From an uncultured Desulfobulbaceae bacterium (lineage in GTDB: Bacteria > Desulfobacterota > Desulfobulbia > Desulfobulbales > Desulfobulbaceae), in NCBI GenBank assembly GCA_947260045.1, contig CAMYOP010000001.1:1-29364 (forward strand): DNA of 29,364 bases, given 5' to 3'. Shown in pieces: positions 12,041-26,397 of the stretch (position 1 is the stretch's first letter; every line of letters starts with the position of its first letter). Made by a program: the position numbers and the translations under genes. The notes beneath the pieces were generated by a model. That model did not search any database. It saw nothing but the letters and a program-made list of their open reading frames with translations, and was not told where the DNA came from.

Positions 12041-12117
12041 GCTAACCGCTCCTGATTACTTAGAAAACGTTAAAAAGATGCCAAAAAAGTGAATGGCTAT
12101 TCATCGTTACGAGGAGA

Positions 12118-12146
12118 TAAGTACTGAATAATCTTAATGCTGTCAA
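12118..12146 (-). promoter_or_regulatory. Candidate sigma70 promoter of the atp operon
   Basis: Perfect TTGACA (12146-12141), then 17 bp, then a weak -10 TACTTA, about 80 nt upstream of the b' start. Confidence 0.35.
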
Positions 12147-12429
12147 ATATTTTTTCTCCAAATGACATATCACTTTTCCTGATGCATCTTATCAGCGCCG
12201 ATTTTTATCACACTTTGAACAACATTCATTTTTACATTAAAAATGTGTTTAATTACAAAACATTACAAATGAACAAGCCGCCGAATACAGGTTTCTTTTG
12301 CATGCTTATCGAGAGCTTGGACATAGCTCTAGCCAATGTTGAAAAAAGGGGATTTTCCACTGCGCCGGAAGAGTTTCCAGAGAGATGCGACCTGTAAGAG
12401 AAAGAAAAAAAATAATTTCTTATGCTTGC

Positions 12430-13437
12430 TTATAAACCATTATTTTTTTTGGTCCTCAGGCATTCGATGAGTTGGTCGAGGCCATCCGATGTAGATACTT
12501 CAGGATGATAGTTGAGAATATTTTTCGCTTTTTCAATACTAAAAAAGTGAGATTTAGCTAATTGTTCAGCGACAAACCGAGTCATTTTTGGTTCATTATT
12601 TATTTGAAAAAGGCTATAAATTATTTCTAAAAAGGATCCGACCAAAAAGGCTGCTCGAAATGAAATTTTCCTTTGAACTTGCGGAATATCTAAGGCTATA
12701 AACAGCGAGTTTATCCATGCCCACAGAGAGACAGGTTCCCCCTGGGAGATAAAAAAAGCTTCACCAGCTGCTGAGCCAGTGCTCTCCAGATTACGGGCAG
12801 CAAGTATATGGGCACTAACCACATTATCAATATAAGAAATATCAACCAGATTTTTACCATCACCTACAATGCGCAAACTCCTCTCACGGCCCCGTGCGAG
12901 TAACCTGGGAATGAGATTTGTATCACCCGGCCCCCAGACCAGATGAGGCCGAAGCGCTGTTGTTTTAAGTGCATCTGAATTGGCTTCAAGGACCAATTTT
13001 TCAGCCATTATTTTCGTTTTCGCATAATGACAGAGCACTTTATCTGCATACGGTAATGTTTCATCCGAGCCAGAAATATCACCTCTATTAAAAACAACGC
13101 TTGGTGTACTGGTATAGACCAGTGACCTGATGCCATTTTTCTTGCATGCACTTACAACATTTTTAGTTCCAATATAATTAACGCGATAATAGGAGTTATA
13201 ACTTCCCCAAACACCTGCTTTAGCCGCAACGTGAAAAACCAGGTCATGTCCGGCAAAAGCATCAAGTAAAAACTCTCTATCACAAAGGTCGCCAACAAGA
13301 GAATTTGCTCCAATTTCAATTGCTGCCGGATATTTATTTCTGCCAACAACGGTGGTCTTAATCCCTTGACGAATAAGCTCTTTTGTAAGAGCGAGACCGA
13401 TAAAACCTCCTCCTCCCGTCACAAGTGCCTTTTTCAT
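12430..13437 (-). CDS. oleD: OleD-like 2-alkyl-3-oxoalkanoate reductase (extended SDR, 3-beta-HSD/epimerase family), 335 aa
   Basis: Rossmann motif ALVTGGGGFIG, FHVAAKAGVWG, YTSTPSVV, catalytic YAKTK, LRPHLVWGPGD. Start moved to ATG 13437 behind a GGAGAGG RBS. Directly follows oleABC. Confidence 0.85.
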   Translation of the reverse strand: MKKALVTGGGGFIGLALTKELIRQGIKTTVVGRNKYPAAIEIGANSLVGDLCDREFLLDAFAGHDLVFHVAAKAGVWGSYNSYYRVNYIGTKNVVSACKKNGIRSLVYTSTPSVVFNRGDISGSDETLPYADKVLCHYAKTKIMAEKLVLEANSDALKTTALRPHLVWGPGDTNLIPRLLARGRERSLRIVGDGKNLVDISYIDNVVSAHILAARNLESTGSAAGEAFFISQGEPVSLWAWINSLFIALDIPQVQRKISFRAAFLVGSFLEIIYSLFQINNEPKMTRFVAEQLAKSHFFSIEKAKNILNYHPEVSTSDGLDQLIECLRTKKNNGL

Positions 13438-13474
13438 GTGCAGTAATACCTCTCCCAGAGTATCTCTTTTATCC

Positions 13475-15097
13475 TTATCCGTTGAGTTTTTCTTCCGCCC
13501 AAACAGCGATTTTTTCTCTGAATATTTTGGCGTTATGCCTGATATCAACTGGAAACGAGGGATGAATCAAAAATGTTTCAATCATACAAGTGAGTTCGCT
13601 CGACTGCGCAATACTTAGTAATTGCGCAAATAATTTCTCCTGATTTTTCACCTCTTGTTTTAACTCAACCACAAGAACTGGTTTCTTCTCGGGACCTTTG
13701 CCAACACCAACCATGGCAGAGCGAAACACATCAGGATGATTATTAAAAAGAGCCTCACAGGGGATTGTATACATCACCCCATTGTGAGTAAAAACTCGGT
13801 GTGCTTTACGCCCACAAAACCATAATTTTCCAGCATCGTCGAAATACCCCATATCACCCATCCTGTGCCAAAACTCTTTCCCTGCTGTAATTTTCGCAAG
13901 GCTTGTTTCGTCAGGATTATTATCATATGCTTTGGTTACCACAGGTCCCTTGACGACAATTTCTCCAATCTCACCAGGGCTACATTCACAAGCATCCTGC
14001 CATTTTTCAATTTCAGCTTCGACAGGTTGAATGACACGAATATCTATCCCAGGCAAGGGACTACCCACACATGTCCCTCCACCTTTACAGGTTATGGCCC
14101 AGGTGTTATTAACAATTTCAGTGCCGGAAATAGAAGAGATAGGCAAACTTTCAGTCGCGCCATAAGGTGTGAAGATCTCTCCATCGGGTGACATACACTT
14201 TTTTACCCGTTCAATAAGTTCACCTGACACAGGTGCTCCTGCCATCAAAATTTTACGCAGAGGCAAAACAATATTATGCTCCAAACAATAATTGGAGACA
14301 ACGTTCCAGATTGCAGGAGAGCCGAAAGAATAGGTTACAGCCTGATCTTGCAGAGTCCTTATAAATTTGGGAGGGTCAACCTGTGCTGGCCTGGTTGGAT
14401 CCATATCCGGTATAACAGCCTTGACACCTAAGGCTGTTGAAAACAGAGCAAAAAGAGGAAAACAAGGTTGATCAACGTCTCCTGCCCCTATGTTGTAATG
14501 ATCGCGAATAAGCTGAAGTTGGGCATGAAAAACACCATGGGTGTATTGCACACCTTTGGGAGGACCAGTGGATCCTGTTGTAAAAATTACAGCAGCAAGG
14601 TCATCAGCATTGGCAAAGCGTGGCTGAATTTTATTGAGAGAAACATCAAAGGTAGCCGCATACAGTACTTTTCCTAAAATTCCAAAGCCAAATCCAACAC
14701 AAAATCGTTTTTTCACAGTTAGAAAAGATTTGGAAAAAATCCATGAAAAAAGAAGTGCCTTGGAGATGCCTATAAGGACATCAGGTTTAACGGAACCAAT
14801 ACACCGTAGCAGATTTTTATACCCCATACCCGGATCAATTAGAATAACTGTCGCCCCAAGGTGAAAGAGAGCAAAGGTCAGGCTGACAAATTCCAGAGAG
14901 GGACGGACCATCAGCATAACCCGCATTCCAGGCCGCACTCCTCCCTGACCAAGGGTGATGGCATAACCACCACTACTATCTCGAAGTTCTCGAAACGTCA
15001 TGGTTTTATAGCCCTTACCTTTGGTTACAACAAGTGCTGCCTGCTCAGGAAAACGAGCAGAAACTTCATCTAAGGCATTAGCGATATTACAATTCAT
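13475..15097 (-). CDS. oleC: OleC-like beta-lactone synthetase (ANL adenylate-forming family)
   Basis: LIDPGMG, IFTTGSTGPPKGV, TPYGATE, WHRMGDMG, CGRKAHRV and the OleC-type C-terminus PVDIRHNAKIFREK. Confidence 0.87.
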   Translation of the reverse strand: MNCNIANALDEVSARFPEQAALVVTKGKGYKTMTFRELRDSSGGYAITLGQGGVRPGMRVMLMVRPSLEFVSLTFALFHLGATVILIDPGMGYKNLLRCIGSVKPDVLIGISKALLFSWIFSKSFLTVKKRFCVGFGFGILGKVLYAATFDVSLNKIQPRFANADDLAAVIFTTGSTGPPKGVQYTHGVFHAQLQLIRDHYNIGAGDVDQPCFPLFALFSTALGVKAVIPDMDPTRPAQVDPPKFIRTLQDQAVTYSFGSPAIWNVVSNYCLEHNIVLPLRKILMAGAPVSGELIERVKKCMSPDGEIFTPYGATESLPISSISGTEIVNNTWAITCKGGGTCVGSPLPGIDIRVIQPVEAEIEKWQDACECSPGEIGEIVVKGPVVTKAYDNNPDETSLAKITAGKEFWHRMGDMGYFDDAGKLWFCGRKAHRVFTHNGVMYTIPCEALFNNHPDVFRSAMVGVGKGPEKKPVLVVELKQEVKNQEKLFAQLLSIAQSSELTCMIETFLIHPSFPVDIRHNAKIFREKIAVWAEEKLNG

Positions 15098-15121
15098 ACT
15101 CGAACCTTAGGTCAAAGGAAA

Positions 15122-15997
15122 TCAGGTTGATATTTCTTTTTCTAAAAAAGCAGAAACAAGCTGGAGAACCTCTCCCCTTGAGTCTTCCAGGATATAATGG
15201 CCGGAATCGGGAAAATAATGGCAATGAGCGTGTGGAAAGCGCTGCTGCCACTCTTCATAAAAATGATCGTTAAAACAAAAATCCCGTCCTCCCCAGCAGA
15301 TCAGCATGGGTTTTTCCTTTAAAGCTCCAAGCTCCGTTTCAACTCGAAGCAATTCCTGCCAGGATGGATGATTCTCACTCAGTGGAATGTCCTGAACAAA
15401 GCGAAAGACAGCGACCCTGTTATGCCAATTGTCATAGGGGAAAAGAAATCCCTTTTTCACAGCTGAGGTCATTTTTTTATGAACAGCCATAGAGGTAGCA
15501 GCACCAGCAAAACCGTTAAGACCACGCACGAGAAATTCTCCCAAAAATGGCCATCGACAGATACCAATTCGAAAAGGTATACGCTGGGACCTGAACGCTG
15601 CCGTATTGAGAACCACTACACCTGCAACTTTATCAGGATTTCTGCCCGCCCATCCCATACCAATTGCCCCGCCCCAGTCATGGACCATAAGGACGCAACA
15701 TTTGATCTCAAGCCTTGTAAGCAAAGCATCCAGGTTTTTGATATGGTTTTGTAAGGTATACACATAGGATTGCGGTTTTTCAGACAGGCCGCAGCCGATA
15801 TGATCCGGGGCAATTACTCTATACCCAGCGCGCAACGATGTGATTGCATGACGATACATATAAGACCAGGTCGGATTGCCATGTACCATGACAATGGGCA
15901 AACCAGCCCCTTCATCAACATAGGACAATCGATGTCCATCAATTTCTATCTCTTTGGGTTTAAATGGATATTCTGCGAGCTGCAATGAATTGCTCAT
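15122..15997 (-). CDS. oleB: OleB-like beta-lactone decarboxylase (haloalkane-dehalogenase-like alpha/beta hydrolase)
   Basis: HGNPTWS oxyanion motif, nucleophile elbow HDWGG, catalytic His in HYILED. The ATG at 15997 overlaps the oleA stop (TAATG). Confidence 0.85.
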   Translation of the reverse strand: MSNSLQLAEYPFKPKEIEIDGHRLSYVDEGAGLPIVMVHGNPTWSYMYRHAITSLRAGYRVIAPDHIGCGLSEKPQSYVYTLQNHIKNLDALLTRLEIKCCVLMVHDWGGAIGMGWAGRNPDKVAGVVVLNTAAFRSQRIPFRIGICRWPFLGEFLVRGLNGFAGAATSMAVHKKMTSAVKKGFLFPYDNWHNRVAVFRFVQDIPLSENHPSWQELLRVETELGALKEKPMLICWGGRDFCFNDHFYEEWQQRFPHAHCHYFPDSGHYILEDSRGEVLQLVSAFLEKEIST

Positions 15998-17031
15998 TAC
16001 CATTCAACGCCAAGCATCAGGGAATTAATACCGCTACCTATGCCAAGCAGCGCTGCCCTTTGCCCCTGAACAAGCTGCCCCTGTTCTATGCCAAGAGCCA
16101 TTGTTATAGGTGCTGACACCGAACCAATATTCCCAAGGATTGGCAAGGTTTCAAAATTGCGTTCAGGATCAAGTCCCAGAGTGTTGAAAAGATGCTGTGC
16201 ATGAACACGCCCTACCTGATGGCAAAAAAATCGATCAATTGATTCTTTCTGCCAGCCAAGAGTGCTTAAAAAATCAGTCCAGCAGTCACTGGCGGTTTCA
16301 ATACCTTTTTCAAGCAGCAACTCTGAATCCGTGGACATAAGTGTACCCTGTTCCGCATTCAGTCCACCCTGACAAAGTTCATTATGATCAGTGTTAGCCC
16401 GACAAGTTCCACCGACAAGATAATGACCAGTATCATTTTGACGACGACTTTCAAGCACCAAACCAACAGCTCCAGACCCGATAGTCAATGAGGCAAAAGC
16501 CGGCTTTATATTTTTTCTTGTCAAGCTCTGGTTTGATAAGAGATGGTTCAGGGTTGACTCAACGAGGCCTTCTGCAGTTTCGCCAGCAACCAATAATCCT
16601 TTTTTTACCTGCCCAAGCTCAATCATGCTGGCAAGCAGAATCATACCGTTTAAAAAACCCAAACAGGCATTAGACAGATCAAAAAGATGACAGCTTTTGG
16701 ATAAGCCTAAGGAGCGGTGGACAAAGGCTGCAGTTGCCGGTTCCATCATATCCCGTGAGACTGAAGTAAACATGAGGCATTCTATATCGTCAGGTGCAGC
16801 ATTGGCAGCTTCAAGCGCTTTTGCTCCTGCTTTTGCAGCAACTGTACTTGGCCGTGTTCCTTTATCCCAGAACCGGCGTTCACGAATGCCGCTCATCAAT
16901 TCAAGCCTGCCCTCAGGCAGTTTCAATTTTTGGTACACTGGTGCAAGCCTCTTTTCCAAATCATCGGAAGAGACAATATGTGGCGGGAGTTCATAGCCGA
17001 ACGGATGAAGGCATACCTGAGAAAATCGCAT
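15997..17031 (-). CDS. oleA: OleA-like acyl-CoA:acyl-CoA alkyltransferase (thiolase fold, head-to-head Claisen condensation)
   Basis: Has the OleA general-base Glu motif (MEPATA) together with NACLGFLNG (Cys), HQVG (His) and GNIG (Asn); followed by oleB, oleC and oleD in canonical order. Confidence 0.88.
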   Translation of the reverse strand: MRFSQVCLHPFGYELPPHIVSSDDLEKRLAPVYQKLKLPEGRLELMSGIRERRFWDKGTRPSTVAAKAGAKALEAANAAPDDIECLMFTSVSRDMMEPATAAFVHRSLGLSKSCHLFDLSNACLGFLNGMILLASMIELGQVKKGLLVAGETAEGLVESTLNHLLSNQSLTRKNIKPAFASLTIGSGAVGLVLESRRQNDTGHYLVGGTCRANTDHNELCQGGLNAEQGTLMSTDSELLLEKGIETASDCWTDFLSTLGWQKESIDRFFCHQVGRVHAQHLFNTLGLDPERNFETLPILGNIGSVSAPITMALGIEQGQLVQGQRAALLGIGSGINSLMLGVEW

Positions 17032-17072
17032 GGAATAATTTATACTTAGAAAAAATTAATGGAATCGTTCCT

Positions 17073-17873
17073 TCAGGAAACTGCTTTACGAACGATATCT
17101 GTGTCAAAATAATTTATAGCCATACCACCATCAACAACAATGCATTGGCTGTTTATTCCTGAGGATCGTGGTGAAAGTAAAAACGCTGCGGTATTGGCAG
17201 CTTCACTGGTTTGTAATGCTTTTTTTCGTAAAATGACTTTTTCGGCAAAAAGATAACTATCAACGTATCCAGGAATACCTGCCGAAGCTGATGTTTTCAA
17301 AAGACCAGGACAAACAGCATTGAAACGCACCTGAGAAAAAGACGAAAAACTCTTGGCAAGAAAACAAAGTGACGATTCAAGAGCTGCTTTCACCGGTGCC
17401 ATATATCCATAATTTTCTGCAGCCATTTTTGTCGTTGAGATGGAGATGGTGACAACCGATGCGTCCTCTTCCAACAACTCTCTAAAATGGTTACTGATTG
17501 CCAGAAGTGAATAGCACGATATATCGATTGCCTGGAGAAAATCCTTTTTCAAGGTTTGATGGAATGGTTTCATTCCTTCTGAATAATTGGCAAAGGCAAT
17601 GGAATGAACCAAACCATGGATCTTGTCTTTTGAATGTTCAGCTATCTCATCTCGAACCCGAATAATATTTTCTTCTTCTTCAACATCACAGATGAAAACA
17701 GCAGAGCCTGGAAATAATTTTCGGGCGGTTTTTGCTCTTTCCTCAGTGCGAACAACATGAATGATTTCCGCTCCATTTTCGGCAAGAGTTCGGCCAATGG
17801 CACTAGCGACCGATTTTCTATTGGCCAGGCCAAAAATAACAATTTTTTTATTCTCAAGATTTAAAAAGCTCAC
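17073..17873 (-). CDS. fabI: Enoyl-ACP reductase, FabI-like (divergent)
   Basis: [23 protein letters not shown], catalytic Y-x2-M-x3-K ([13 protein letters not shown]), [14 protein letters not shown]; GTG start. Confidence 0.82.
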
Positions 17874-17939
17874 ACTTCTTCCTTTTTTTCAACTCCCAAT
17901 GCTTGGCGAACATGAAATATTTCTATAATATTCAATTAA

Positions 17940-18395
17940 TCAATCTATCTTACTAAGCATACAGGCAAAGTCCACCTGGATTACCACCTTTTTAGCCAAA
18001 TGGACAGATCCCTTTAAAAACCAGGCACTTCCAAGACGTTCTTTTAACTTTGCTGTCACAAGAATCGTATCGCCTGGATGCACCTGGCGTTTGAATTTTG
18101 CATTCTGGATTCTGGTGAGCACTGGCACAGATTGGGCCATCTCATCCCTGCCAGTTTCCTGCCGAAATTTTTCAGCGATTAAAAGTGCACCTGCCTGGAA
18201 AACGGCTTCACATAAGAGCACCCCAGGCATAAGAGGGTGTCCAGGGTAATGCCCTGTAAACAGCTCAAGATTTTTGGAGATATATTTTTCTGCTTGAATG
18301 GAATCTGCTGTTAAGTCAAGGACCTTGTCAATCCAGAGAAAAGGAGAGCGATGTGGAATACGCTTTTCAACAAAAGATTCGCTCTGGAGATCCAT
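17940..18395 (-). CDS. fabZ: 3-hydroxyacyl-ACP dehydratase, FabZ-like
   Basis: IPHRSPFLWID and FTGHYPGHPLMPGVLLCEAVFQ carry the His/Glu dyad; the ATG overlaps the fabG stop (TAATG). Confidence 0.88.
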   Translation of the reverse strand: MDLQSESFVEKRIPHRSPFLWIDKVLDLTADSIQAEKYISKNLELFTGHYPGHPLMPGVLLCEAVFQAGALLIAEKFRQETGRDEMAQSVPVLTRIQNAKFKRQVHPGDTILVTAKLKERLGSAWFLKGSVHLAKKVVIQVDFACMLSKID

Positions 18396-19135
18396 TACAA
18401 ACCACCAGTTATTTCCAGCACTGAACCAGTAATATAGGCACTACGTGAACCTGCCAGAAAAAGCACTGCATCTGCTACTTCTTCCGGAGCACCAAAGCGT
18501 TTGGCTGGAACGAGCTTCTTATACTCTTTCATCTGACTTTCCGTTAAGTCTGCAATAAAATCAGTTGCAATAAAACCTGGGGAAACGCAATTAACCGTAA
18601 TCTTTCGCTTTGCTGTTTCTTTAGCCAGAGACTTCATCATTCCGACCTGACCGGCCTTTGATGCCGCATAGTTTGCTTGTCCGGCAAAGCCAAGATGCCC
18701 CATGGGAGACGTGACAAAAATGATACGCCCGTATCGCTTTTTCAACATAAGATTTACGCCAAACTTTGCCATGGTGTAACTTCCTGTCAGATTTACATCG
18801 ATAACACGGCGCCAATCCTCTTCCTTGAGCATGGCAAGAACACCATCTCTGCGTATACCCGCATTACTGACCAGAATATCTATGACATCAAACTCTTCTT
18901 CTATAAGTTGAAAGAGTGCTGAAACCTCAGAATAATTTGAAACATCACATTTATGAAGTTGCAGACGTTGGCCCGCTTCTGTACAGTCTTGCTGCAATGC
19001 TGCCGCAGCGGCAACGTTTCCTGCATAAATGCCGATTACAGTTGCCCCCTTTTCAAGAAATGCCTCAGTGACCGCTCGTCCAATACCTCTTGTTGCGCCG
19101 GTAACGACAACAACCTGACCTGTAAAATCTTCCAT
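18395..19135 (-). CDS. fabG: 3-oxoacyl-ACP reductase, FabG-like
   Basis: VTGATRGIG, NAGIRRD, catalytic YAASK, VNCVSPGFIAT; ATG 19135 preferred over TTG 19141. Confidence 0.9.
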   Translation of the reverse strand: MEDFTGQVVVVTGATRGIGRAVTEAFLEKGATVIGIYAGNVAAAAALQQDCTEAGQRLQLHKCDVSNYSEVSALFQLIEEEFDVIDILVSNAGIRRDGVLAMLKEEDWRRVIDVNLTGSYTMAKFGVNLMLKKRYGRIIFVTSPMGHLGFAGQANYAASKAGQVGMMKSLAKETAKRKITVNCVSPGFIATDFIADLTESQMKEYKKLVPAKRFGAPEEVADAVLFLAGSRSAYITGSVLEITGGL

Positions 19136-19150
19136 TAACAATTCAATCTC

Positions 19151-20557
19151 TCAGCTTCTTAAATAACCATCAACATCATTTGCCACAATAACACCATAGT
19201 TAATGGCACCTAGCCAACCACTCATGATAATCCCCACCGATCCAACATGAAAAAGACCGGGCAGCTCTTTATAGATGGACCTGGAAATTTCAAGACCCTC
19301 AAACTTCGTACCAAAGGAAGTACCTTTAGTATGCAGGGTATAACGGTTAAAGGTCCGCGGAGTCGCTGCCTCAACCCAATCAACTTTTTCCCTGATGCCT
19401 GGAATATAGCGCTCAAGATCATTATAGGAGCGTTCAATCATATCGACTTTAGCCTTTTCATACTCTGTATCATCAAGCCTCATCCAGTCATCATAATTAC
19501 CATTCATAGAAGCAACGACAGTATAATCAGGTTTCTCTGGCCGCGTTTTCGGATAATAAATAGAAAAAGTTCGACTCTTGGTCTGCATATCAAGCATTTC
19601 TTCTGAAGAGAACTGTTTTGCCGTGGAGGTAAAAAGCAAATCTCCAACATCATCAAAACGCTCACCTTGTTTGACCCCAAAATACACCTGGCAGCTTGAA
19701 TTATTTACTTTTACAGCATCAAAACGTTCGAGGTAATCAGGGCTGAAGTGTTCACGGCCAGCAAGATTTGTTACCGTATTTGTTATACCACTGTTAGAAA
19801 CCACAGACTTGGCATGAATTTTTTTATTGCCGACGATTACCCCGGTAATTCTATCTTTTTCGATGATAAGCCTATTCACTCTGGCTTTAGTGCAAATAGT
19901 GACCCCATTGGCGACAAGCTCGTCTTGCATCATGTGGATGAGTTTATCAGTGCCACCTTCGAAAGTATAAACGCCACGATTCATAAAATTCGAAAAAACT
20001 ATACCATAGGTAATAGCCGGCTCATCAAGGGTTGAACCATTAGCGTATGTTATTGGTTCAAGCAAGAGACGATGAACATCACTGCGCCCAGGGAAAAATT
20101 TTTCAAAAAGCTCCCTTGTGGTCATGGATTGATCATCATAAAAATTCATTTTGTTGACAGTTGCAAAAAATTCGTCAACAACACTCATCTCTATTTGAAA
20201 TTTCTGGTTAAGAATTTTGACAAAGTCTTCCTTATCAAAAGAGGTTTTCAAGGAAAACTGGGGATTATCAAAGACAATATTATCCAATTGGACAATGGAA
20301 TCTTTAATGGCCTTATTCCAATATTTTTTGCAGGTTTTAACCATTCCATAGGGAAAACCATGTAAGGAAACATCAAAAACATGTCCTTTGCGTTTAAACC
20401 AGGTGGCCAGGCCACCGAGTTTTGTATGGTGCTCAAGTAACAAAATACTGTGCCCGGCTCTTGCCAAGCGGTTGGCGCAGGTGAGACCACCGAGACCTGA
20501 ACCGATCACAATGGTATCATATGAACTTTTTAGATTTTTTAACGGTGTAAAGGACAT
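19151..20557 (-). CDS. Phytoene dehydrogenase-like (CrtI/COG1233 family) FAD-dependent oxidoreductase, copy 2; function unknown
   Basis: N-terminal dinucleotide fold YDTIVIGSGLGGL...LLEHHTKLGG...FDVSLHG. C-terminal ATPRTFNRYT...GTSFG and LFHVGSVGIIMSGWLGAINYG. Confidence 0.85.
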   Translation of the reverse strand: MSFTPLKNLKSSYDTIVIGSGLGGLTCANRLARAGHSILLLEHHTKLGGLATWFKRKGHVFDVSLHGFPYGMVKTCKKYWNKAIKDSIVQLDNIVFDNPQFSLKTSFDKEDFVKILNQKFQIEMSVVDEFFATVNKMNFYDDQSMTTRELFEKFFPGRSDVHRLLLEPITYANGSTLDEPAITYGIVFSNFMNRGVYTFEGGTDKLIHMMQDELVANGVTICTKARVNRLIIEKDRITGVIVGNKKIHAKSVVSNSGITNTVTNLAGREHFSPDYLERFDAVKVNNSSCQVYFGVKQGERFDDVGDLLFTSTAKQFSSEEMLDMQTKSRTFSIYYPKTRPEKPDYTVVASMNGNYDDWMRLDDTEYEKAKVDMIERSYNDLERYIPGIREKVDWVEAATPRTFNRYTLHTKGTSFGTKFEGLEISRSIYKELPGLFHVGSVGIIMSGWLGAINYGVIVANDVDGYLRS

Positions 20558-20699
20558 AGTGTAATGGTCCAATAATAAGAATACGTTCTTTCATGGACTC
20601 TGGAGTGTGCCAAGCAAAGAACTTTTGGGAAAAGTTAATAGTTATCTAATAGCAGAAAAATTATATATTTCTACCAAGTTAATCTGACTTCTGCAAGAC

Positions 20700-22091
20700 T
20701 CATTGCAGTAACTGTTGATTGACGATGGTAACACCGCTCAGCATTGAACCAATGATACCGAGATAGCCTTGGTCAGTTCCTGCAATAAACAAATTTTGCC
20801 AGGGTGTGCATCCATCTTTAATCTTGAGTGGACTGCCATAGACTGCTCCTTTAGCCTTGGCAGTATAGCGCTCTATGGTAGTCGGGGTGAAACTGTCCTG
20901 AAAAACAGCACCTTTCCAGTAATTTCCAATTATTTTCCCCACAGTCTGCTGTGATTTTGTGTACGATTCTGTTTTCAACTGCTCATACTGTGTGGAACCA
21001 GCCTGACGCCATATTTCATAATTGGCGGGATTGGTGACCCTTACCTGAAAAACATCTCCTTCTTCCAAAGCTTGAAAGTTTTCAGGAAAACAAATGACTC
21101 CCCAGGAATCATCAATAGCGGTGTCTGGGCAGCTATAGTGAAACTCGTCTTTGTTATTATAAAAAATGATTGTTGAATCGGATCGGACCGATTGTCTTTG
21201 GGACGAGGGCAAAATTGAAATTGACTCCATAAAACTCATTTTTCCGCTATATGCTTCAAGCTCAAGGGGCCAATCACTTAAATGGGCAGTACCAGGAATA
21301 CCTACCGTGGACAAAACAGCCCGGCAGGATATTTCCTCTCCGCTCTCCAACAAGACTCCCTGTATACGATCTTTATGGGTGACAATTTTTGCTACTTTGG
21401 TCTGAAAACGTATTTCCCCGTCATATTTTTTATACTGCTCTACAAGCATATCGAGAAAATCTCGAATAGTACCCTCTGGTCGAAAAAATCCTTCCAGAAA
21501 AATTGAGCGGAACATTATAACAAACTGACCAAAATCCATATCATGCTCTTCGCTATTGCCATACACCATGAGTGGCAGCAATAACATATCCTCAAGAACT
21601 TTATTACGAAGAGTAATAGATAATATTTCGCGGGTTGACTGCCACTTACTCAAGGCAAAGGGGTCATGCTCCTGAACTTTCATGGCTAAATTACGGAAAT
21701 GATCCAGGGAACCAGGAAACTCTCTTTCTATTTCGCTTTCAAGGAAAGAAAAGTCATTGTTAAACCTGAGTCCATGTGTTTGAAATTTGATTTCAGAACC
21801 GATCTGTTCGTGGGTCTGAAATTTTTTTCGGGAAAGTTTAAGCTGCCTGAAAAGTCTGTTGAGAGGTGCATGCCGATTTGAGGGCTCAGCAAAATTGGTC
21901 ATGGCATGCAGGCCGGTCTCAAGTATATGCCCCTGGCGATAATAAAATGAATTGAGTCCGCCTGGAAAATGGTGCTGCTCAAGTATGAGAACTTTTTGAC
22001 CAAAGCGGGCCGTTCGTATACCTGCAGCAAGTCCGGAGAGGCCTCCGCCAATTATTATAAGCTGATAATCTTCCAGACTTTTCACCTCCAA
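20700..22091 (-). CDS. Phytoene dehydrogenase-like (CrtI/COG1233 family) FAD-dependent oxidoreductase, copy 1; function unknown
   Basis: IIIGGGLSGLAAG...LILEQHHFPGG...LETGLHA. C-terminal FTPTTIERYT...GAVYG and LFIAGTDQGYLGIIGSMLSG. Start codon uncertain (TTG 22091 or GTG 22085). Confidence 0.85.
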   Translation of the reverse strand: MEVKSLEDYQLIIIGGGLSGLAAGIRTARFGQKVLILEQHHFPGGLNSFYYRQGHILETGLHAMTNFAEPSNRHAPLNRLFRQLKLSRKKFQTHEQIGSEIKFQTHGLRFNNDFSFLESEIEREFPGSLDHFRNLAMKVQEHDPFALSKWQSTREILSITLRNKVLEDMLLLPLMVYGNSEEHDMDFGQFVIMFRSIFLEGFFRPEGTIRDFLDMLVEQYKKYDGEIRFQTKVAKIVTHKDRIQGVLLESGEEISCRAVLSTVGIPGTAHLSDWPLELEAYSGKMSFMESISILPSSQRQSVRSDSTIIFYNNKDEFHYSCPDTAIDDSWGVICFPENFQALEEGDVFQVRVTNPANYEIWRQAGSTQYEQLKTESYTKSQQTVGKIIGNYWKGAVFQDSFTPTTIERYTAKAKGAVYGSPLKIKDGCTPWQNLFIAGTDQGYLGIIGSMLSGVTIVNQQLLQ

Positions 22092-22122
22092 TATTGGCTA
22101 GGAAATTGTGATTGTATCAGGT

Positions 22123-22150
22123 GATCATGCCTCAATTTTGGAGGCAGATC
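22123..22150 (-). other. Intergenic stem-loop just downstream of acp (possible mRNA-stabilising or attenuating hairpin)
   Basis: GATC-(A bulge)-TGCCTC / 7-nt loop / GAGGCA-GATC inverted repeat with no U-tract. Confidence 0.4.
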
Positions 22151-22167
22151 CAGGCTAGGCTTGAAAA

Positions 22168-22428
22168 TCAGCTAACAGCAACGCTCTGAAGTTTAGGTTC
22201 AAGATAATTTACACAACTATTTAAGGTAGCAAGCTCTGGATATTCTTCTTCAGGAATTGTAATCTGGTAGCGCTTACGCAGCTCCATCACTATATCAAGA
22301 AAATCCATGGAATCCAGATCAAGCTGATCACGCAAAGGCGCATCGGCATCCAGACCATCGAACTCCGCTTCTTCATCAATATCTTGAATGATTTCTATAA
22401 TAATATCCCTGATTTCGTCCCGGGTCAT
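22168..22428 (-). CDS. Acyl carrier protein dedicated to the cluster
   Basis: 86 aa, strongly acidic, phosphopantetheine site LDLDSMDFLDIVM; AGAGGA RBS. Confidence 0.92.
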   Translation of the reverse strand: MTRDEIRDIIIEIIQDIDEEAEFDGLDADAPLRDQLDLDSMDFLDIVMELRKRYQITIPEEEYPELATLNSCVNYLEPKLQSVAVS

Positions 22429-22514
22429 TTCAATCCTCTATATAAATTAATGGTAATCTCTTCGAATTCTCGACAATTTTAGCGTGTTTACGCCAACAAT
22501 CATAGAGAAAAAAA

Positions 22515-23765
22515 TTAGTAGGCATCAAACCTTTTCACAATTACGACTGAATTAATTCCAACCATGCCGAAGGAGTTATTCAAAATTGTGTCGACCTTGT
22601 CAAGTTGTTTCGGTTCATTTGCGACAATTCCGGGTAATTCACAGGCAGGATCCAAGCTATCCAGATTAATAGTTGGATGAACAATATTATCCTCAAATGA
22701 CGACAGATTGCCGGCCAGTTCCAGGACTCCGGCCGCTCCCATGGCATGTCCAATCGTTGATTTGGTATTATTTACATACACGTTGGACGCATCCTGAAAA
22801 ACTTCACGAATCGCTTTACATTCCTCTATGTCACCCTGGCGTGTCCCTGTGGCATGAGTATTTATAATTGTTATATCATTGGCTGTCATTCCAGCTCTAG
22901 CAAGGGCAATTTTCATACATTCTGCCTGGCGTGGACCATATGGTAAAACAAAATCACGGGCATCAGAATTCATGGCATAGCCTGCTATTTCACCATAAAT
23001 TTTAGCCCCCCGTGCCAGTGCTTTATCCAGGCGTTCAAGAGTGAAGACGCAACCACCCTCAGAAATTACAATACCATTTCTATCCAGGTCAAAAGGTCGG
23101 CTGGCCTTGGTTGGATCTTTGTGTTCAGCTAACGCTCCCTGGGCCCTAAAACTTGCAAAAATACCAAAAGAATCAACACACTCTGAAATACCGCCGCATA
23201 GGGCCAGATCCACCTCTTCCAAAAGGAGCATCTGAACACCCTGAATTAAAGCAGCATTTCCAGCGGCACAGGCTGCCCCAATTGAATAATGGGGGCCGGT
23301 AATCCCAAGATTCATGGTAATTTCGCCCGCTGGATTATTCAAGACAGTTCGCGGGTTATGGTGATGAGTCCAGTAATCTACATTATAATCAAAACAGCTG
23401 ATATTATAGACTTCATTTTCCGTTTCAACGGTTCCATGCTCTGTCAGGCCTATATACACACCCGTAGAAGACTTATCATATTGACTGAAATCTATACCAC
23501 TGTCGGCTAATGCTTCATTGGCACAATAGACGCTGATGCAGCCGGCCCGGGTTCCCCGTTTATTTTCTTTCTTTTTTCGATATTTTGTTTCGGCAAATGA
23601 ACAGATTCCGGCAGGGGCTGTATCCATATAACGGAGGTCAATTGTTGAAATACCACTTGTTCCTGCAAGTAATTTTTGTCTGAATTCAGTTAAATTACTT
23701 GCATTAGGGGACGCCAGCCCGACCCCGGTAATGACGATTCTTTTGTTTTCCGCCTTTGTCTGCAT
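22515..23765 (-). CDS. fabF: Beta-ketoacyl-ACP synthase II (FabF/FabB family), divergent
   Basis: IVITGVG, Cys-His-His triad (GAACAAG, NTHATGT, KSTIGHAMGAAG), EGGCVFTLE, C-terminal NNSFGMVG; ATG 23765 preferred over TTG 23771. Confidence 0.88.
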   Translation of the reverse strand: MQTKAENKRIVITGVGLASPNASNLTEFRQKLLAGTSGISTIDLRYMDTAPAGICSFAETKYRKKKENKRGTRAGCISVYCANEALADSGIDFSQYDKSSTGVYIGLTEHGTVETENEVYNISCFDYNVDYWTHHHNPRTVLNNPAGEITMNLGITGPHYSIGAACAAGNAALIQGVQMLLLEEVDLALCGGISECVDSFGIFASFRAQGALAEHKDPTKASRPFDLDRNGIVISEGGCVFTLERLDKALARGAKIYGEIAGYAMNSDARDFVLPYGPRQAECMKIALARAGMTANDITIINTHATGTRQGDIEECKAIREVFQDASNVYVNNTKSTIGHAMGAAGVLELAGNLSSFEDNIVHPTINLDSLDPACELPGIVANEPKQLDKVDTILNNSFGMVGINSVVIVKRFDAY

Positions 23766-23780
23766 GCTCAATTTTTCTCT

Positions 23781-23807: not shown

Positions 23808-26397
<2,590 letters not shown>

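Follow-up and report, generated by a model that had tools for sequence, protein, structure and literature searches.

A fatty-acid-synthase module with two CrtI-fold flavoproteins beside oleABCD in a Desulfobulbaceae genome, a probable acyl-chain supplier for olefin synthesis

We analysed a stretch of 29,364 nucleotides (the window) from an uncultured Desulfobulbaceae bacterium (contig CAMYOP010000001.1, assembly GCA_947260045.1), whose metagenome-assembled genome (MAG) consists of 376 contigs and is 78% complete. Positions 12430-23771 hold eleven consecutive open reading frames (ORFs), all on the minus strand, in the order fabF-acp-FAD1-FAD2-fabG-fabZ-fabI-oleA-oleB-oleC-oleD, where FAD1 and FAD2 stand for two flavoproteins of the CrtI fold (Table 1). 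The seven genes upstream of oleA, hereafter the module, probably constitute a dissociated, type II specialised acyl-chain synthase that feeds OleABCD, where acyl chains would be condensed head to head to a long-chain olefin. The locus touches a question that has stood since 2009-2010, namely how strict anaerobes lacking the Pfa polyunsaturated fatty acid (PUFA) synthase, such as Desulfotalea psychrophila, make polyunsaturated hydrocarbons of the C31:9 type, and its companion, the role of CrtI-like flavoproteins in fatty-acid-synthase (FAS) clusters, anammox ladderane candidate loci included.

From fabF to oleD, and counted from the likely starts, the intergenic gaps are 86, 82, 142, 15, -1, 66, 41, -1, 24 and 37 nt, and the two overlaps are TAATG stop/start junctions, one between fabG and fabZ (18393-18397) and one between oleA and oleB (15995-15999). 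ORFs and likely starts thus confirm the original prediction, made from the sequence alone, of eleven co-oriented genes with no gap above 142 nt and two such overlaps. A consensus scan of the coding strand found no terminator-like site between cluster genes, in a setting where promoter and terminator counts did not exceed those of shuffled sequences and the scan is uninformative. Judged by its layout, the cluster plausibly forms a single operon of all eleven genes. Moreover, at least six further genomes (Desulfobulbus rhabdoformis DSM 8777 and several MAGs) have the eleven genes in this very order, and chance grouping of the genes is therefore excluded.

Table 1 Genes of the cluster, from upstream to downstream. 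Domain calls come from Pfam and NCBIfam profile searches of the cluster proteins, with scores set against the curated cut-offs.
Feature	Coordinates	Strand	Evidence
FabF ketosynthase	22515..23771	-	PF00109/PF02801; TIGR03150 308.5 bits vs 493.75 cut-off
Dedicated acyl carrier protein (ACP)	22168..22428	-	PF00550 38.7 bits; TIGR00517 38.4 vs 70.45 cut-off
FAD1, CrtI-fold flavoprotein	20700..22091, probable GTG start 22085	-	PF01593/PF13450 (Amino_oxidase/NAD_binding_8)
FAD2, second CrtI-fold flavoprotein	19151..20572, probable ATG start 20557	-	PF01593/PF13450 (Amino_oxidase/NAD_binding_8)
FabG 3-oxoacyl-ACP reductase paralogue	18395..19141	-	TIGR01830 279.6 bits vs 297.75 cut-off
FabZ dehydratase paralogue	17940..18395	-	PF07977; NF000582 114.7 vs 113; TIGR01750 112 vs 155
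FabI enoyl-ACP reductase, FabI-like short-chain dehydrogenase/reductase	17073..17873	-	best FabI equivalog 169 bits vs 362 cut-off
OleA head-to-head Claisen-condensing thiolase	15997..17031	-	NF006720 440.8 bits vs 285 cut-off
OleB alpha/beta-hydrolase (beta-lactone decarboxylase type, by position)	15122..16003	-	PF00561; NF002938 169.5 bits
OleC AMP-dependent beta-lactone synthetase	13475..15097	-	NF006754 658.7 bits vs 478 cut-off
OleD NADPH-dependent 2-alkyl-3-oxoalkanoate reductase	12430..13548, probable ATG start 13437	-	NF042423 383.7, NF042422 364.9 bits

OleA gives 228 bits against the Xanthomonas enzyme (PDB 3ROW) and keeps the cysteine of the NAC motif, the glutamate of EP, the histidine of HQV and the asparagine of GNIG. 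On the olefin beta-lactone synthetase models OleC reaches 507-523 bits, short of equivalog cut-offs of 850-900, and the OleD matches span the full length of their models at scores under the equivalog cut-off of 580. OleB matched general alpha/beta-hydrolase models and the haloalkane-dehalogenase-like NF002938 (cut-off 241) and no OleB-specific model; its slot between oleA and oleC is kept in relatives, as is the order oleA-B-C-D.

Active-site residues are kept in the FabF, ACP and FabZ of the module, and its FAS proteins depart from housekeeping enzymes in score. FabF, aligned to PDB 4B7V, retains the Cys-His-His triad, the phosphopantetheine serine of the ACP is Ser40 in a DSM motif, and FabZ has both its catalytic His (GHYP) and Glu (CEAV) in place. 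FabF, ACP, FabG and FabI all fall below the housekeeping equivalog cut-offs, while FabZ lies below TIGR01750 and just above NF000582. A GFGG gating loop is a mark of elongating ketosynthases; the loop of the module FabF, in its C-terminal part (22521-22600), reads NSFG-M-V-G-I-N against the canonical NSFG-F-G-G-T-N, and NSFG-M-[V/L]-G-I-N was found in every module FabF examined, from the Desulfobulbaceae, Opitutales and Bacteriovoracaceae (three phyla), with the canonical NSFGFGGTN in the housekeeping FabF of the same genome (contig C29). The cluster encodes no FabA-like domain, chain length factor (CLF), acyltransferase or phosphopantetheinyl transferase. A match of FabG to FlxB (242 bits, cut-off 340) raised the possibility of an aryl-polyene or flexirubin-type cluster, which was rejected as the locus lacks both a CLF and an aryl-loading enzyme, encodes an enoyl reductase and is linked to ole.

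According to the original prediction these genes form a private dissociated FAS with its own ACP. A separate housekeeping set does exist in the genome. Contig C163 (511-6522) carries plsX-fabH-[acyl-CoA dehydrogenase-etfB-etfA]-fabG, with a FabG that is a true equivalog (339 bits on TIGR01830, cut-off 297.75) and 46% identical to the module FabG; contig C29 opens on a canonical FabF of which only the C-terminal half is present and which, with 374 bits, scores as a true equivalog; contig C64 holds a FabD-like gene and contig C144 a second FabZ. Because housekeeping copies lie on other contigs and the cluster copies score below equivalog cut-offs, the sequences support the cluster fab genes being a second, divergent set apart from the housekeeping FAS, FabI excepted. 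The private synthase thus stands for FabF, ACP, FabG and FabZ, and falls for FabI, the only copy.

Indeed, the cluster FabI is the sole FabI-type gene of the MAG, and FabI is also single copy in five complete genomes of the family. As no other FabI was found, this reductase probably serves bulk fatty-acid synthesis as well. Just one further candidate for an enoyl reductase turned up, an NMO/FabK-like gene on contig C36, between hisS and pcnB, with 183 bits against a cut-off of 453; a search for FabV gave no match in the genome and was silent on its controls too, and is uninformative. On contig C163, the acyl-CoA dehydrogenase and the two electron-transfer flavoprotein (Etf) genes occupy the usual spot of fabD. 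Since the only FabI lies in the ole-linked cluster, this acyl-CoA dehydrogenase/EtfB/EtfA trio may be an alternative enoyl-reducing system.

The two flavoproteins are 23% identical to each other. The best NCBIfam matches of FAD1 are CrtISO (64.9 bits) and CrtD (63.8 bits), far under the cut-offs; FAD2 matches CrtD (109.9 bits), CrtISO (105.9 bits) and crtI_fam (88.4 bits). Both stay below the cut-off of the phytoene desaturase family TIGR02734 (238.1), with 50.1 bits for FAD1 and 88.4 for FAD2, and sequence searches against the PDB aligned only the N-terminal dinucleotide-binding motif, without a functional hint. AlphaFold2 models (predicted local distance difference test 95.9 for FAD1 and 89.8 for FAD2) gave CrtD (4REP) as the best fold match, with a template modelling (TM) score of 0.73 at 16% identity for FAD1 and of 0.75 for FAD2; further matches are an archaeal oxidoreductase (3KA7), CrtI (4DGK) and plant phytoene desaturase (5MOG), at 13-18% identity. 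The three-domain flavoprotein fold of CrtI type is therefore recognised in the models, at TM scores of 0.56-0.75 to 4REP, 4DGK and 5MOG, and the term CrtI-like is correct for the predicted fold of two proteins that stand outside the phytoene desaturase family.

A type I polyketide synthase (PKS) of the same genome offers a second case of this flavoenzyme class on ACP-based chain building. On the minus strand of contig C110 (1774-8442), an open frame of 2223 residues that runs off the contig comprises ACP, ketoreductase (KR) and dehydratase (DH) domains, about 600 residues without a Pfam match and a C-terminal CrtI-like Amino_oxidase domain, the last being 25% identical to FAD2.

The module recurs well beyond this genome. 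Close homologues of FAD1 (62-69% identical) and FAD2 (75-81%) are found in Desulfobulbaceae, cable bacteria, Desulfolithobacter and Desulfurivibrionaceae, which places the window in an organism of Desulfobulbales type. In Ca. Electronema, insertions interrupt the same gene set. Farther away, a Nitrospinae MAG carries fabF-acp-FAD1-FAD2-fabG-fabZ-fabI, three Opitutales MAGs carry fabF-acp-FAD1 only, and a Bacteriovoracaceae MAG has a compact, self-contained unit of seven genes, fabF-acp-FAD1-oleABCD (locus L035, 8447-15806), with unrelated genes on either side. In other families of the phylum ole adjoins the module in a different arrangement or lies on the same contig. The link between module and ole is thus conserved across phyla, both as the eleven-gene order and as the Bacteriovoracaceae unit. 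Furthermore, because FabF, ACP and FAD1 are retained in full and reduced arrangements alike, they are, on gene content, the conserved core, FAD1 always travelling with this FabF and ACP. All five of these distant genomes, which were reached through FAD1, have an OleA above the cut-off, and none of the five has a PfaA-like match at E<=1e-60.

Several further arrangements were recorded. Locus L058 of genome G166 reads oleC-oleD-FAD2-fabG-fabZ-fabI, with ole upstream of the module, and the same genome encodes a FabA-like protein (168 bits). In one genus from another family (L057, L059, L060) there is a FAD1-FAD2-fabG-fabZ-fabI block and no detected OleA. Genome G177 (L059, L061, L062) has three FAD2 paralogues, those at L061 and L062 without module neighbours.

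These arrangements bear on whether the flavoenzymes work before or after OleA. FAD1 and FAD2 could act after the condensation, desaturating or isomerising a free, mostly saturated or monoene olefin of C27-C33 built from ordinary chains, with FabF and ACP merely channelling or elongating. Both proteins have the CrtI/CrtD fold (TM 0.73-0.75 to 4REP), the known members of that family (CrtI, CrtD, CrtISO) act on long hydrophobic hydrocarbons of C30 or C40, and in the Bacteriovoracaceae unit FAD1 stands directly before oleA. Nevertheless we find this unlikely. FAD1 remains joined to FabF and ACP even when ole is distant, as in the Opitutales and in the genera whose complete genomes hold FAD1, FabI and OleA far apart, and the FAD1-FAD2-fabG-fabZ-fabI block persists in the genus without detectable OleA. 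In addition, chemistry of the CrtI type extends conjugation, whereas the C31:9 polyene of D. psychrophila is presumably methylene-interrupted. Modelling would also place FAD1 on the carrier protein: its predicted contacts lie on helix II of the ACP, the canonical recognition helix, around Ser40. This predicted complex scored 0.49 against 0.01 for the best control and is graded as weak support, on a scale whose mark 58 of the 80 solved complexes and 2 of the 110 mismatched pairs attain, with only 7 of those 80 at 0.60 or less.

The distribution of the module relative to Pfa argues for its role as a supplier of chains. The family was sampled with 81 genomes, 52 of them of high quality. FAD1 occurs in all 52, OleA in 51 and a PfaA-like gene (E<=1e-100) in 11, and 41 of the 52 hold the module and OleA without a PfaA-like gene. 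In 301 genomes sampled evenly over the phylum, with the module scored by FAD2, there are 17 with FAD2, 28 with OleA and 31 with a PfaA-like gene. Thirteen of the 28 OleA-positive genomes carry the module, one of these (G322) together with a PfaA-like gene at the threshold applied; the remaining 15 are all PfaA-like positive, often on the oleA contig, and the number with neither is 0/28. OleA is accordingly found in 13/17 genomes with the module and in 15/284 others, and the pattern, spread over six families with module and Ole and twelve with Pfa-like genes and Ole, is not the effect of a single clade. Because all 28 OleA-positive genomes hold either the module or a PfaA-like synthase, gene content makes it most likely that the module stands in for Pfa as the supplier of acyl chains to OleA.

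The same counts speak to another possibility, that the module serves this lineage as its anaerobic means of making the usual unsaturated fatty acids of membranes and that the adjoining Ole enzymes use whatever acyl chains there are. A module present in 52/52 high-quality family genomes, a FabI that is the only one, and a module that occurs without OleA in one genus would all suit such a role. So would the lack of alternatives, since no FabA reaches the cut-off in the five complete family genomes and no O2-dependent FA_desaturase was found in the MAG at its 78% completeness. FabA is, however, missing throughout the phylum (0/301 genomes at the cut-off, 9/301 matching at E<=1e-30) and the module is present in only 17/301, so that other genomes of the phylum must make unsaturated lipids without it. 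Neither the strict pattern of module or Pfa-like gene among OleA-positive genomes nor a physical link to ole that recurs in unrelated phyla would be expected of a membrane-lipid pathway, and we regard this alternative as rather improbable.

Independence from Pfa, also part of the original prediction, is clean only at the level of the family; in this MAG PfaA-like fragments of type I PKS are present: a PilZ-ketosynthase (KS) piece on contig C141, KS-acyltransferase (AT)-ACP-KR-DH on C202, the ACP-KR-DH-...-amine oxidase frame on C110 and KR-DH on C47. On C141 (3-1607, minus strand) a c-di-GMP-binding PilZ domain precedes the PfaA-like KS in the same frame, which probably continues into the KS-AT-ACP-KR-DH frame of C202. 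These fragments, together with similar large genes in 11/52 high-quality family genomes, could mean that in this genome a PfaA-like PKS supplies any polyunsaturated chain to OleA and that the product of the module is unrelated. Each piece nevertheless lies below the PfaA cut-off and none is linked to ole here, no PfaD (TIGR02814) was found in the 78%-complete MAG, and 41/52 high-quality relatives possess module and OleA and no PfaA-like gene. We consider this supplier very unlikely.

A specialised acyl-chain synthase therefore seems the best account of the module, on the combined weight of its synteny and distribution. In such a scheme the module would take the part that the Pfa megasynthase plays beside ole in Geobacter and in trans in Shewanella, and its proteins would map one to one on the Pfa domains: FabF on the KS, ACP on the ACP domains, FabG on the KR, FabZ on the DH and FabI on the enoyl reductase (ER). 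FAD1 and FAD2 would replace the FabA-like isomerising dehydratase domains and choose the enoyl intermediates that keep a cis double bond, and the ACP-bound product would be passed to OleA. We infer that both flavoenzymes act on intermediates bound to the ACP and without O2. Their chemistry might be a redox-neutral isomerisation of the trans-2 bond to cis-3 or cis-2, which we slightly prefer, or a dehydrogenation towards an acceptor other than oxygen (quinone or Etf). In Pfa logic, conversion of trans-2 to cis-2 and of trans-2 to cis-3 gives rise to the cis bonds at even and odd positions that a methylene-interrupted polyene must combine. Two isomerases would fit that logic and would work without O2 and without an electron acceptor. 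The minimal clusters, which carry FAD1 alone, show that a pair of flavoenzymes is not needed in every case. By analogy, the chains would be polyunsaturated and 16:4-like, yielding the C31:8 and C31:9 products measured in D. psychrophila.

The most specific form of this proposal is a dissociated type II PUFA synthase in which the two flavoproteins stand in for FabA-like domains as redox-neutral enoyl-ACP isomerases of CrtISO kind, one of them turning a trans-2 bond into cis-3 and its partner turning it into cis-2, and in which FabF, with its altered gating loop, and ACP build 16:4-type chains that OleA takes directly from the ACP. We hold it to be possible but doubtful. If it were true, it would be a third route to methylene-interrupted polyenes that depends neither on O2 nor on a megasynthase, common to Desulfobulbales, Opitutales and Planctomycetota and possibly to the anammox ladderane clusters. 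A type II PUFA synthase would also bring new enzymology of cis double-bond placement, small, portable parts with which polyunsaturated lipids or hydrocarbons could be engineered under anoxia, and a changed reading of OleA-bearing genomes in work on sediment lipid biomarkers. The seven-gene minimal unit and the eleven-gene full unit, the latter in a cultured bacterium (D. rhabdoformis DSM 8777), give an experimental handle.

A number of points weigh against a specialised synthase for polyenes. The sole FabI sits in the cluster, and some of the module may thus be no more than housekeeping; the MAG also carries the PfaA-like fragments on C141, C202, C110 and C47. The related genomes behind the pattern in the 301 are not independent. 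Four of the 17 module genomes have no detectable OleA (three from one genus, one 84% complete) and keep the FAD1-FAD2-fabG-fabZ-fabI block; the tie to Ole is thus not a strict one, and the module can serve another fate. Regarding the flavoenzymes, the fold matches, at about 15% identity, are unable to separate desaturase, isomerase and saturase, the hidden Markov model matches are far below cut-offs, and no result tells an isomerase, dehydrogenase or reductase role apart; flavin chemistry on unactivated methylene groups is in any case implausible. For the organism of this window and its family a polyene is a predicted product, modelled on D. psychrophila, and the genes are putative counterparts of DP2405/DP2406 of D. 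psychrophila and of kuste3336/3607. Finally, the CrtI-like homologues of anammox bacteria showed no phytoene desaturase activity and no crtI complementation, and have no assigned function (Javidpour et al. 2016, PMC4790861); the literature searched yielded no biochemical assignment of these flavoenzymes after 2016.

The cluster has alaS on one side and ATP synthase genes on the other. Upstream, alaS adjoins it at 36-42 nt from fabF. This gene (minus strand, 23808-26388) is in two pieces, an N-terminal ORF of 121 residues (26023-26388) that ends in a stop and a main ORF of 723 residues (23808-25979) that begins at model position 153, with about 30 residues absent and a frameshift near 26020; as the gene is essential, misassembly probably explains the split in this MAG better than a pseudogene does. 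Downstream of oleD, past a gap of 389 nt (12041-12429) with a plus-strand ORF of 86 residues (12137-12397) without a family match, lies an F-type ATP synthase operon, which begins with two b-type subunits, b' and a b of 239 residues.

The core of the proposal is not new. D. psychrophila makes C31:8 and C31:9 hydrocarbons, the latter identified with the polyene of psychrophiles and planctomycetes, and was reported without a pfa or polyketide-type PUFA pathway; its FASII clusters with phytoene-dehydrogenase-like genes are syntenic with anammox ladderane candidate loci, and a novel anaerobic PUFA route was proposed (Rattray et al. 2009, PMC2649909). The connection between Desulfotalea and anammox ladderane genes, mentioned in the original prediction, is thus real, and the route which that prediction put forward had already been proposed in 2009. 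This locus adds one more member to a cluster type that is published and biochemically uncharacterised, and the strongest new arguments are the complementary distribution with Pfa-like genes and the seven-gene minimal unit.

Like the FASII clusters of D. psychrophila and Kuenenia stuttgartiensis, this one groups type II FAS paralogues (FabF, ACP, FabG and FabZ) with CrtI-like flavoproteins in an anaerobe without canonical pfa. It differs from the account of 2009 in that the clusters were not tied there to oleABCD, decarboxylation of a C32 acid was assumed and FabI was placed elsewhere; the anammox and D. psychrophila loci also include radical SAM and methylase genes, of which this window has none.

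FAD1 and FAD2 share with CrtI, CrtD, CrtISO and RetSat a common fold (4REP, 4DGK and 5MOG as above) and the N-terminal dinucleotide-binding motif, and are set apart by identities of about 15-17%, scores below all curated carotenoid cut-offs and the absence of carotenoid genes nearby. Helicobacter FabX, reportedly a flavin dehydrogenase/isomerase of anaerobic unsaturated fatty acid synthesis, would be a precedent for a flavoenzyme that makes a cis double bond on acyl-ACP without O2, although it is said to have an FMN-binding NMO fold, not that of CrtI, and to introduce one double bond, for membrane lipids.

The oleABCD genes resemble those of Xanthomonas campestris, Shewanella oneidensis and Micrococcus luteus in their order, in the OleA catalytic residues of 3ROW and in the full-length model matches of OleC and OleD. 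In those species the ole clusters stand alone and are fed by housekeeping or Pfa-derived acyl chains, whereas here OleC and OleD fall below the species-level equivalog cut-offs and the module lies alongside. A functional parallel is Pfa coupled to OleABCD, in trans in Shewanella and in tandem in Geobacter bemidjiensis, where pfaDABC-oleABCD-pfaE occurs and C31:9 is made (PMC4882568, PMC3098273), a Pfa-Ole linkage that is mediated by OleA in vivo (PMC6463001). Pfa is a type I multidomain megasynthase whose parts include FabA-like DH domains, tandem ACPs and a CLF; the cluster described here encodes discrete proteins only, with no multidomain PfaA, and its FAD1 and FAD2 have no counterpart in Pfa. 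Nonetheless, both systems would place a dedicated chain builder before OleA, KS, ACP, KR, DH and ER are all represented in each, and among OleA-positive genomes the two are complementary in their distribution.

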